Assembly (NCBI GenBank): GCA_037131105.1
Contig: JBAXRQ010000001.1
Span: 130,039 to 194,038, forward strand
Direction: 5' to 3'
Origin: a bacterium
GTDB taxonomy: Bacteria > Patescibacteriota > UBA1384 > CAILIB01
DNA: 64,000 nucleotides
Positions 23,975 to 59,440 of the stretch are shown one piece after another. Both the position numbers and the translations under genes were made by a program. Position 1 is the stretch's first letter. Each line of letters starts with the position of its first letter. Below the pieces are notes generated by a model, which did not search any database, was not told the DNA's origin, and worked only from the letters and a program-made list of their open reading frames with translations.

Positions 23975-24173
23975 GTGGATGCTAGCTATTCAGAGGTATA
24001 GCGCGACCTCATGGCGAGGTCGAAATGCTAGAGACATCCTAGCAGGGAATAAGTGATTTGTCAATCTGGTAGACTCTTATTTTGAATTGTTGCACGGATA
24101 AGAAGTGGCTACTGGTAGTGGAGTACGTACAAAGCCTGGTGGGTATGGCACGAATGGCGGGGTAGAGGCCAGA

Positions 24174-24300
24174 GGGAGTCGTTTACTCTCTAACGCGAAC
24201 TTTTCCGACCTGCCCCCGGCAGGTCATAGCGGGACTCTCCTCCCTCGCCCCATATACAGAGAAAAGAGCTCCAGCAAGCTGAAACTCTTTTCTCTGGTAG
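24174..24300. repeat. Copy 1 of a roughly 113-nt hairpin-rich unit, flanked by tRNA-Glu 3'-end-like fragments (gggagtcg … tggtag).
   Basis: About 90% identical to 25065..25176. The last 52 nt are identical (ccccatatacagagaaaagagctccagcaagctgaaactcttttctc). Confidence 0.8.
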
Positions 24301-24500
24301 GCCATCCGGGACGAAGTTCGCACCCTGGCGGCCAGGTTGGAGCATGACTTTCCAAAGTGGGAGACTATCGTCGCCAAGGTAGGCGGCGGCCAGGTCCAGT
24401 TGAACTTGTTCTAGCATTCTAAATGCTCCAAAGTGGTGCGCTTTGTGAAGCCCACTGCCAGTCGTACGGACCTGGCGATGGGTTCGGAAAGGGCTCCACG

Positions 24501-24902
24501 CTAACCGGTCTCAACGGTGCAGAAGTTCCGCTCGGAGTACTCGCCTAGGAGCCTGTGCCAGTACGGGTCGTCCACCGTGATTGCCATGAGTCCATCGACT
24601 GCGTTCAGCTCGATGTCCTTATAGGGCAGGCCGCAGAGCGCCGCCATCTTGCAGAGCATGTCGAAGGGGTCGCTCTTGTCGCCGAACCGGCCCTTTATGG
24701 CTGTCATGCCGCTGCAGATCCGCCCAAGGTTTGTTAGCGCCTCCGGACTCCACTTGAATGGATCGGGCGTCGGTACGAAGACGGCGCAGACGACGCCGAG
24801 CTCGTCCGTCTCAAGTCTCACGGTTACGTGCTCCTCGAGCCTCCGGTGAGGATCTGGCCTGCCGTCGGGACTGAAGACGATTGCTGTCGCATTTGTATTC
24901 AT
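24501..24902 (-). CDS. Hypothetical 133-aa protein located between the two repeat units.
   Basis: An ORF with no recognisable motif. It sits between two direct repeats next to a tRNA, which is a typical site for integrated-element remnants. Confidence 0.35.
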   Translation of the reverse strand: MNTNATAIVFSPDGRPDPHRRLEEHVTVRLETDELGVVCAVFVPTPDPFKWSPEALTNLGRICSGMTAIKGRFGDKSDPFDMLCKMAALCGLPYKDIELNAVDGLMAITVDDPYWHRLLGEYSERNFCTVETG

Positions 24903-25043
24903 TACAATGCCTCCTGCAGCCGTTATACCAGGAGAAGGGGAATAGTCAATCCGGCTATGGCACTAGCTCAATGTCCGGGCACACAAAAACAGACCTTTCG
25001 GCCTGTCTTCTCACTGCAAGCAGTGTTGCGTCAGTGCAATTTA

Positions 25044-25197
25044 TGGTAGCGCCAGCGGGAGTCGTTTACTCGCTATCGCGAACATTCCGACCTGCCGCAG
25101 GCAGGTCAAAGAGGGACTCGACTCCCTCACCCCATATACAGAGAAAAGAGCTCCAGCAAGCTGAAACTCTTTTCTCTGGTAGCGCCAGCGGGAGTCG
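25044..25197. repeat. Copy 2 of the roughly 113-nt unit (25065..25176), bracketed by two identical 21-nt copies of the tRNA-Glu 3' end (25044..25064 and 25177..25197).
   Basis: The sequence tggtagcgccagcgggagtcg occurs twice, 133 nt apart. The second copy is the genuine 3' end of tRNA-Glu. Confidence 0.85.
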
Positions 25198-25253
25198 AAC
25201 CCGCGATCTCTTGGATGAGAACCAAGTGTCCTGGACCACTAGACGATGGCGCC
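25177..25253 (-). tRNA. tRNA-Glu, anticodon CUC.
   Basis: GGCGCCATCGTCTAGTGGTCCAGGACACTTGGTTCTCATCCAAGAGATCGCGGGTTCGACTCCCGCTGGCGCTACCA. It folds as a 7/4/5/5 cloverleaf with T33 and A37, anticodon CTC, a GTTCGACT T-loop and an encoded CCA. Confidence 0.85.
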
Positions 25254-25401
25254 CTGAGTGAGCAGCTGGCTGCAACCGAAGGTTGGAAGCCTGGTGCGAA
25301 CGAGGTAGCCAATACCGCGAAGCGGTATGGCGCCGCATTCGCGGAGCTCACAGTTCCTAACGACAATACCAGATTACTGGAACATTGTCGATAGCCAACG
25401 G

Positions 25402-59148: not shown

Positions 59149-59318
59149 TAGAGGCTATAGCTTTATGGTAGGGAATTGCACATGGATTTGCGAGAGGGAT
59201 GACGCTCGTCAAGCCAGTCTCACGACTGGTTTTGACTTCGCTAACTTCGGTGGTCGGGTAAGCCTACCACCGAAGTCGAACCCTTGAGGGTTCTTCCCTT
59301 TTCCCTCTCTCTCCGCCA

Positions 59319-59350
59319 CAAAAAAAGATCTACTGATGTAGATCTTTTTT
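59319..59350. terminator. Bidirectional rho-independent terminator hairpin.
   Basis: caaaaaaagatctac-tga-tgtagatcttttttt: a 14-bp stem flanked by an A run and a T run. Confidence 0.5.
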
Positions 59351-59352
59351 TG

Positions 59353-59440
59353 TGGCGGAGAGAGAGGGATTCGAACCCTCGGTACCTTTCGGTACACACG
59401 CTTTCCAAGCGTGCGCACTAGACCACTATGCGATCTCTCC
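59353..59440 (-). tRNA. tRNA-Ser, anticodon GGA.
   Basis: GGAGAGATCGCATAGTGGTCTAGTGCGCACGCTTGGAAAGCGTGTGTACCGAAAGGTACCGAGGGTTCGAATCCCTCTCTCTCCGCCA. It has a 3-bp D stem, a long variable arm (GTACC-GAAA-GGTAC), a TTCGAAT T-loop and an encoded CCA. Confidence 0.85.

Follow-up and report, generated by a model that had tools for sequence, protein, structure and literature searches.

We analyzed a 64-kb window of a Patescibacteria genome (64,000 nucleotides (nt) of contig JBAXRQ010000001.1; all coordinates below are positions in this window) in which the gene for tRNA-Glu is followed by a hairpin-rich repeat module, a small open reading frame (ORF) and a second copy of the same module. Read along the tRNA strand, which is the minus strand, the locus starts with a sigma-70-like promoter called by consensus scan (TCGACA-17-TATTGT, TG-extended; 25363..25391), located 5' of a tRNA-Glu(CUC) gene with an encoded CCA (25253..25177; ARAGORN; Rfam, 65.1 bits). 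The last 21 nt of this gene constitute a core, c1 (25197..25177), and are followed, in order, by hairpin T1, the body of unit A, a second core (c2), a second terminator-like hairpin, a promoter-like TTGACT-N16-TATAAC, an AGGAGG ribosome-binding site, and the small gene, ORF133. Beyond ORF133 come a 167-nt spacer, a degenerate core copy (c'), hairpin T1', body B, a further degenerate core copy (c''), and then the promoter and gene of a family-2 glycosyltransferase.

The duplication of the tRNA-Glu 3' end that was reported in the first-pass annotation of this DNA is exact. Two exact occurrences of the 21-mer TGGTAGCGCCAGCGGGAGTCG exist in the window, one at 25177-25197 (c1) and the other at 25044-25064 (c2, extending from the T-loop to CCA), and none of 100 shuffles matched it even once. 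The two copies of the 113-nt unit, A (25065-25176) and B (24182-24294), repeat with a period of 882-883 nt and are 89% identical across repeat blocks of 109 and 36 nt, or 84.6% identical over the body without the core. Their longest identical run measures 53 nt (25182..25130 = 24300..24248) and is best read as a recombination or conversion tract. A 40-nt hairpin segment of the units is found at only two window positions, both of them in the unit copies. The sequence beside the second copy, initially described as tRNA fragments, is indeed tRNA-derived but proves to comprise complete degenerate copies: c' (24295..24333, minus strand) folds into a compact acceptor/T-like hairpin (GGCCGCCAGGG-ugcgaacuucgu-CCCGGAUGGCC; -18.9 kcal/mol) with a UACCA tail, and c'' (CGACTCCCTCTGGCCTCTACCC; 24160..24181, minus strand) includes a CUCCCUC that pairs perfectly with the GAGGGAG anti-core of unit B. 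Unit B itself contains T1' (24259..24294, minus strand), identical to T1, and a body (24182..24258, minus strand) with this anti-core, a palindrome at 24207-24225, and a decayed small hairpin.

The three hairpins noted previously in the unit are all present, but two of their features had been missed: the first stands where relatives have the tRNA terminator, and the third is an inverted T-arm fragment. Hairpin T1 (hairpin 1; 25141..25176, minus strand) directly follows CCA and folds as GAGAAAAGAGUUUCAG-CUUG-CUGGAGCUCUUUUCUC, with a 16-bp stem, a CUUG loop, UUUUCUCU on the 3' side of the stem, and two G-U pairs that form only on the tRNA-sense strand. T1 is most likely the terminator of the tRNA transcript, of the A-tract/U-tract type; it was missed by the consensus scan for terminators, probably because pairing between its A and U tracts makes the stem longer. 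An equivalent but different A-tract/U-tract hairpin occupies the same position in relatives L123, L124, L125, L127, and L130. Hairpin 2 (25089..25107, assigned to no strand) is a perfect 8-bp palindrome, GACCTGCC-TGC-GGCAGGTC, at the homologous position of which the third unit of L127 carries CCGGTTGC-TTGGA-GCAACCGG. Hairpin 3 (25111..25128, minus strand), which we term the anti-core, is an inverted pseudo-T-arm of tRNA-Glu: its GAGGG-AGUCGAG-UCCCUC compares with GCGGG-AGUCGAA-CCCGC in the reverse complement of the tRNA T-arm. In the minimum-energy fold, GGGAGUCG of the anti-core pairs with CGACUCCC of core c2, and there is an enrichment of 6-mers antisense to the tRNA 3' end (P=0.008). The remaining small hairpin, UUCGCGAUAGCGAG (25069..25082, minus strand), lies within a conserved block, GGAA..TCGCG..GA.TAA.CGA.

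The proposal that differences between the two local copies betray selection on RNA structure does not withstand closer inspection. T1 lies wholly within the 53-nt identical run, and the match between its two copies is therefore uninformative about selection; a comparison of two copies has almost no statistical power, with ~12 differences in ~73 variable columns and a probability of ~0.05 that none would fall in the 16 stem bases of the central palindrome. Only comparisons across lineages (below) speak for structural constraint.

The small ORF between the unit copies, present as first described, can now be placed on the minus strand (24902..24501), where it would encode an orphan protein of 133 residues. 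The AGGAGG lies 7 nt upstream (24915..24910, minus strand), preceded by the promoter-like TTGACT-N16-TATAAC (24922..24949, minus strand), which was read directly from the sequence and fails the scan rule demanding T at position 6 of the -10 hexamer. Also read by eye was the second terminator-like hairpin, ACAGGCC-GAAA-GGUCUGU followed by UUUUUGUG (24982..25006, minus strand), which the scan did not call, probably because its stem can extend into the T run. Codon usage in ORF133 is coding-like in frame (log-likelihood ratio of 0.21 versus -0.30 and -0.76 off-frame), and its third-position GC content is 0.78 compared with 0.68 for window genes. ORF133 looks like a genuine, if orphan, gene. It matches no Pfam family (E<=0.1) and no PHROG family, it is its own only homologue among 5.8 billion clustered proteins, and a phmmer search against 1.84 billion representatives returned just one spurious low-complexity repeat protein. 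An AlphaFold prediction made without an alignment was unusable (predicted local distance difference test score, 35). The overall layout of a tRNA 3' end, a direct repeat, a small cargo ORF, and another direct repeat is borne out by the exact 21-nt repeat together with the degenerate copies c' and c''. A second ORF of 75 residues (24190-24417, minus strand), which begins in the spacer past ORF133 and crosses c', T1', and unit B, is probably spurious; its N-terminal 40 codons precede the repeat.

ORF133 is also carried by a 1264-nt metagenome contig, L001 (ENA ERZ27299960), in a variant arrangement. The first 119 nt of this contig correspond to window positions 24366-24248 (spacer plus c') and are joined via the 53-nt run to window positions 25182-23993. 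This junction puts the distal end of the ORF133 cassette before unit A. To arise from the arrangement in the window, it requires that the 882-bp block be present as a second tandem copy or as a circle. The last positions of the contig (L001:1257-1264) end in CTGTCTCT, the start of a Nextera adapter, and represent adapter read-through rather than genome. A metagenome scan with a 45-mer from the tRNA 5' end retrieved two short contigs only.

The module is found at other tRNAs and in other genomes, where it obeys a common grammar. CCA is followed by a hairpin with A and U tracts and then by a partly decayed, inverted fragment of the T-arm and 3' end of the local tRNA. Next come between one and four hairpins, mostly perfect, which change in sequence but persist as hairpins, and the module closes with the final 16-21 nt of that tRNA, copied in direct orientation. 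A second instance in the window (59184..59440, minus strand) starts with tRNA-Ser(GGA) (59440..59353), after which come a hairpin with A and U tracts and the tRNA 3' end in a perfect inverted copy. The tRNA 3' end, this hairpin, and the inverted copy make up a 32-bp perfect inverted repeat (59302-59333 / 59338-59369) with a 4-nt spacer, a palindrome of unusual length for a bacterial chromosome. Hairpins and then a degenerate core, AUCCCUCUC..CCA, lie beyond it. Elsewhere, arrays of one to three tandem units lie behind tRNA-Glu, tRNA-Gln, and tRNA-Ser in four other Patescibacteria lineages. Homologues of the ROK kinase place the lineage in Patescibacteria. The gene order Mur ligase, PolA, S20, PMM, ROK, tRNA-Glu is kept in relatives, the closest of which share only 62-63% identity in the ROK kinase. 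Behind tRNA-Glu, L124 and L125 have one unit each, with the grammar seen in the window, and L127 has three modules in tandem; the module follows tRNA-Gln in a Saccharibacteria genome (L005) and tRNA-Ser(CGA) in a Vogelbacteria genome (L071). The tRNA-Glu modules end in the 3' end of the host genome's own tRNA, down to whether position 65 is C or T, and modules at tRNA-Gln and tRNA-Ser likewise carry the 3' end of their own tRNA. The unit is therefore neither unique nor a mere local duplication, as it recurs at another tRNA of the window and in distant relatives.

We surveyed all tRNAs found in ~1 Mb of sequence for direct copies of their last 14 nt within 400 nt downstream, allowing at most one mismatch. 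Such copies were found at Patescibacteria loci only, and ~17 control tRNAs of other phyla had no copy closer than three mismatches. Some relatives (L122, L129, and L130) are without the module. None of 118 loci returned by a loose hairpin-pattern scan of genome contigs matched the unit; these loci were reused as a control set, from which the L005 and L071 modules emerged. A blastn search with the 1-kb region found no match in phage or plasmid collections, and scans of viral contigs for hairpin 1, the palindrome, the 21-mer core, and the long-type motif (see below) gave no matches. The 17-mer core occurred in viral contigs only within viral tRNA arrays, at apparent chance positions outside tRNAs, and at one attachment (att)-like site, L138, which is not from Patescibacteria. 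At that site (L138:2400-2560; IMGVR_UViG_3300037054_000361), a partial tRNA-Glu-like 3' end is followed by a terminator, with no full tRNA, and it looks like the att site of a phage from a non-Patescibacteria host.

Several further observations concern these loci. After the core copy, CCA/GATTTGC(C)AAC is common to L005:2837-2846 and L071:643-652, despite their different tRNAs (Gln versus Ser) and classes, and is possibly a further conserved junction motif. The region 3' of the module-less tRNA-Glu of L130 (5370-5420) contains a palindrome, GGGCGCCATGGCGCC, that fuses the 5' acceptor strand GGCGCCA to a near-copy of the 3' acceptor strand; it could be a NarI-like palindrome that arose by chance, or else a minimal acceptor hairpin. 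Near the tRNA-Gln of L005 is an S-adenosylmethionine riboswitch (2383-2493; RF00162, 49.8 bits) upstream of an S-adenosylmethionine synthetase gene, an ordinary and unrelated feature. Finally, the tRNA-Glu contigs of 5 of 16 relatives (L002, L123, L126, L128, and L133) end 0-90 nt from the CCA end, which suggests that assembly across this locus commonly fails at repeated tRNA-end copies. A practical consequence would be that module repeats break metagenome assemblies at tRNA genes.

The resemblance of the locus to a decayed tRNA-integrated element that lacks an integrase, as first proposed, is upheld: Pfam identifies no recombinase domain among the 35 window ORFs tested, and the L001 junction is the one expected of a tandem or circular form. 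An element of the IS200/IS605 type is not indicated, as ORF133 matches no Pfam family at E<=0.1, and hence neither a Y1 HUH transposase nor a TnpB. Large serine recombinase genes (Resolvase+Recombinase+Zn_ribbon_recom) are absent from the window but abut the tRNA-Glu CCA in two other Patescibacteria lineages, one represented by L131:4912-6523, L132, and L134 and the other by L147:6013-7643, L148, L150, and L151. An integrating element of another class therefore makes use of the same tRNA flank. Both L131 and L132 have a gene for a DUF87/TrwB-like ATPase farther along. Accessory genes also accompany the modules themselves. Two module copies in L005, with tRNA-Gln cores at 2818 and 5900, flank a three-gene islet, and the tRNA-fragment junctions there have only CTCATCCC in common, the trace expected of a site-specific event. 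In L071, the genes directly behind the module are a TdeIII restriction-modification pair and one for a LexA-like protein, and UDG and a PIN/RHH pair lie near the modules of L127. We considered a 337-residue protein beside the att-like junction of L005 as a novel integrase and rejected it, given no match in PDB, Pfam, or PHROG.

The bodies of the units are more similar between lineages than their surroundings. We compared the window, L122, L123, L124, and L127, among which ROK identity is 54-61% (~54% among module-bearing genomes) and the spacers between ROK and the tRNA are 27-56% identical, the level of shuffled sequence. With the core excluded, the bodies of L124 and L127 unit 1 share 66% identity (shuffle mean, 51%; sd, 2), and those of window unit A and L127 unit 3 share 60% (shuffle mean, 50%; sd, 2.7). 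Two types of unit, short and long, are each found across lineages. Units of the short type in the window and in L127 have the flanks GUGAGGGAG and GGAA..UCGCG..GA.UAA.CGA in common. Together with the folding and compensatory changes described below, these similarities show either constraint or recent spread.

The reading that we favor, at a little under even odds (a probability of roughly 0.45), is a DNA-level one: the locus would be a hot spot for integration at a tRNA, where the module serves as a portable region of attachment or homology and recombination is carried out in trans or by RecA. An 882-bp cassette would have brought its own module copy, along with the second terminator, the promoter-like site, ORF133, and the degenerate tRNA-end hairpin, and would have recombined with a chromosomal module within what is now the 53-nt identical run. 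The outcome would be an intact tRNA and terminator, with the cargo held between two module copies, and later recombination between those copies could yield tandem amplification or excised circles. The recombinase would be unlinked, either supplied in trans or replaced by RecA acting on at least 53 nt of identity. RecA is generally held to need ~25-30 nt of identity, a length that 53 nt exceeds. The anatomy, the recurrence of the module at several tRNAs and in several lineages, its conservation above neutral spacers, and the variant junction are shown directly by the data. The DNA-level role, the direction of events, and the enzyme are what we infer from a set of concordant observations: the accessory cargo beside modules, the L001 junction, the bracketed islet of L005, the tandem array of L127, the cores that copy the local tRNA, and the serine recombinases that mark the same hot spot. 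In addition, most body hairpins are perfect Watson-Crick palindromes, including the 32-bp example at tRNA-Ser, a symmetry that fits a role in DNA better than it fits typical RNA stems. The gap between the terminator-like hairpin and the body is only ~5-15 nt, and no promoter-like site was called there. A precedent for such serial events exists in the tycheposons, in which successive integrations at tRNA genes leave partial tRNAs, tandem junctions, and circles (bioRxiv 10.1101/2020.12.28.424599).

Several points weigh against this interpretation. ORF133 and the 34 other window ORFs tested contain no integrase, transposase, or reverse-transcriptase domain by Pfam. L001 is one 1.26-kb metagenome contig, and a misjoin induced by the repeat is possible. 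An empty site was not recovered, as contigs from SRR7053528 break inside the repeat. The known tRNA att sites of which we are aware have neither an inverted copy of the tRNA end nor conserved hairpins, and the favored reading leaves both of these features unexplained. Bodies of 76-138 nt that are kept between lineages at 54% ROK identity argue for a function of the body itself. Lastly, in 9 of 11 units the tRNA-sense strand folds with the lower minimum free energy, a mild lean toward RNA.

On a broader view, the modules would be a phylum-wide, previously undescribed functional class and not scars, whether as folded recombination sites of a tRNA-anchored gene-capture system with an unlinked enzyme or as RNAs that mimic the tRNA acceptor. 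We consider that broader view unlikely, though it has a real chance of being right. A specific RNA reading, which we hold to be similarly doubtful, would make the units structured small RNAs that imitate the top half of the local tRNA, expressed from their own genes or co-transcribed. Anti-core and core would form an acceptor/T-stem-like helix with an NCCA tail, and variable hairpins would replace the T-loop. Such RNAs could be handled by RNase P and the CCA-adding enzyme or could serve as a decoy or sponge for factors that bind tRNA 3' ends; homologous recombination between paralogous RNA genes would, in that case, have left ORF133 bracketed as a side effect. The folds agree with this proposal in that the closing helix between anti-core and core forms in 11 of 11 units, and 9 of 11 bodies are richer than their shuffles in 6-mers antisense to the local tRNA 3' end, with the anti-core tracking tRNA identity (Glu, Gln, or Ser). 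Compensatory changes point the same way: in the long-type alignment, 7 of 39 predicted pairs stay paired through two-sided changes, mostly in two hairpins, and the central hairpin of the short type differs on both arms between unit A of the window (GACCUGCC/GGCAGGUC) and unit 3 of L127 (CCGGUUGC/GCAACCGG) while its flanks are conserved. The lower sense-strand energies and the sense-strand G-U pairs, the conservation of bodies above neutral spacers, a GGGA (GNRA-type) loop that recurs in L124, L127 unit 1, and L005, and the presence of another terminator-like hairpin after each core copy, as for an RNA gene, all suit an RNA. However, a terminator-like hairpin also stands immediately upstream of every unit with no promoter detectable in between, and the stems, being mostly perfect Watson-Crick palindromes, do not resemble those of typical RNA. 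The acceptor part of the closing helix is decayed in the window units, and several relatives (L122, L129, and L130, above) have no module. Searches of the window region and its relatives against Rfam 15, at both gathering and permissive thresholds, matched only tRNAs, with sub-threshold hits at the level of noise; ARAGORN found no tmRNA in the window, and no tRNA or tmRNA model fits the units. The sequences are too few for a real covariation test, so RNA structure and DNA-level hairpins are not separable on these data.

A neutral origin, which strikes us as distinctly unlikely, would require no function at all. Here, replication would switch templates at the tRNA terminator hairpin in genomes poor in repair: a quasi-palindrome extended outward would copy the tRNA 3' end in inverted orientation, and a second extension at the next hairpin would restore the direct copy. 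The resulting repeats would then seed homologous duplications such as the 882-bp block. Such a process accounts naturally for the 32-bp perfect palindrome at tRNA-Ser, which is centered on the hairpin loop, for the inverted copy in the modules of tRNA-Glu and tRNA-Gln, which sits past the hairpin in mirror position, and for the fact that the copies always match the local tRNA. Quasi-palindrome correction also predicts that body hairpins be mostly perfect palindromes, and the process needs no dedicated enzyme, in agreement with the absence of a recombinase. It fares less well between the anti-core and the core, where the sequences are not mirror images, and at the palindrome of unit A, the flanks of which are not reverse complements. 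Nor does it readily yield units of equal length and the same block order across lineages at 54% ROK identity, where spacers have fallen to shuffle level, or short and long types that each cross lineages, and it leaves the association with accessory genes unexplained.

That the units are folded single-strand recombination sites, comparable to integron attC or to the attP hairpin of CTX-phi, seems very improbable. In such a system, the tRNA 3' end would act as attI, and the units plus their upstream DNA would be the cassettes. Pairing of anti-core and core does rebuild a duplex copy of the tRNA 3' end, the ends of the units are conserved while their central structures vary in size, and the units form tandem arrays in which one member carries an ORF and for which an 882-bp circular or tandem form is possible. 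Even so, no tyrosine recombinase (Phage_integrase-type domain) was detected in the window ORFs tested, and the R''/R' core motifs (RYYYAAC / GTTRRRY) were not found by eye at the unit ends. Unlike integron cassettes, ORF133 has its own promoter-like site and the L005 cargo occurs in both orientations, and most of the would-be cassettes consist of a hairpin only. Other candidates were rejected: a pseudo-tRNA on either strand lacks the 5' acceptor strand, a miniature inverted-repeat transposable element with terminal inverted repeats lacks a target-site duplication, a casposon-like or CRISPR-like insertion lacks terminal inverted repeats, a retroelement primer-binding site or antisense RNA is at odds with the terminator polarity and G-U pairs that favor the tRNA-sense strand, and a guide RNA with a 3' guide, of the CRISPR-associated transposon or TnpB type, has no effector gene and would have its guide paired to the scaffold.

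Patescibacteria have tiny genomes with few recognizable mobile elements, and little is understood of the ways in which they acquire accessory genes. Should the favored DNA-level reading be true, a module that rebuilds the tRNA and its terminator around cargo, and that carries no recombinase, would be a concrete route of gene gain at tRNA loci. The cargo in the window is the orphan ORF, and beside modules in relatives it includes a restriction-modification pair, a toxin-antitoxin pair, and a transporter islet. If the units are RNAs instead, they would constitute a new family of tRNA mimics that tracks the identity of the neighboring tRNA.

Insertion sites that are anchored on a tRNA, carry att-like repeats, and lack an integrase are, in themselves, already known. 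The composite, conserved, tRNA-specific module with its inverted and direct copies of the tRNA end, its tandem arrays, and its spread across Patescibacteria classes and tRNAs are present neither in Rfam nor in the literature that we searched. Among RNAs, the units are reminiscent of the tRNA-like domain of tmRNA, YrlA, and viral tRNA-like structures, in which an acceptor/T-like helix ending in a 3' NCCA forms between the 5' and 3' segments and encloses internal hairpins. They are set apart from these by the lack of any ARAGORN or Rfam model match, by a replaced T-loop, and by a 3' strand that is a literal copy of the neighboring tRNA, and as RNAs they are putative. With integron cassettes and attC sites, they have in common imperfect-palindrome sites with conserved ends and a variable center, arrays, circular intermediates, and small ORFs, but there is no IntI, attI, or R/L box motif, the cargo has a promoter-like site, the units are mostly empty, and their ends copy a tRNA. 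Cis-mobilizable elements (CIMEs), such as those related to ICESt, an integrative and conjugative element (ICE) of Streptococcus thermophilus, are att-flanked segments devoid of recombination or transfer genes. The modules resemble them in their att-like repeat borders, the lack of their own recombinase, and tandem accretion at one type of tRNA site. They differ in that no cognate ICE or integrase was identified and that their size (0.13-0.9 kb) is far smaller, and CIMEs do not contain structured inverted and direct tRNA fragments. Integrative elements that target tRNA genes, such as tyrosine-integrase islands and seeds of the Prochlorococcus tycheposon type, differ from the window element in having an integrase in or near them, and from the modules in general in that the repeat here is a 130-200-nt composite, which adds to the tRNA segment a terminator hairpin, a tRNA fragment in inverted orientation, and conserved hairpins, and in that many units are free of cargo. 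They nevertheless share with it direct repeats that run from T-loop to CCA with an intact tRNA at one end, partial tRNA copies stacked as serial events would leave them, small accessory cargo, and a tandem or circular junction variant.

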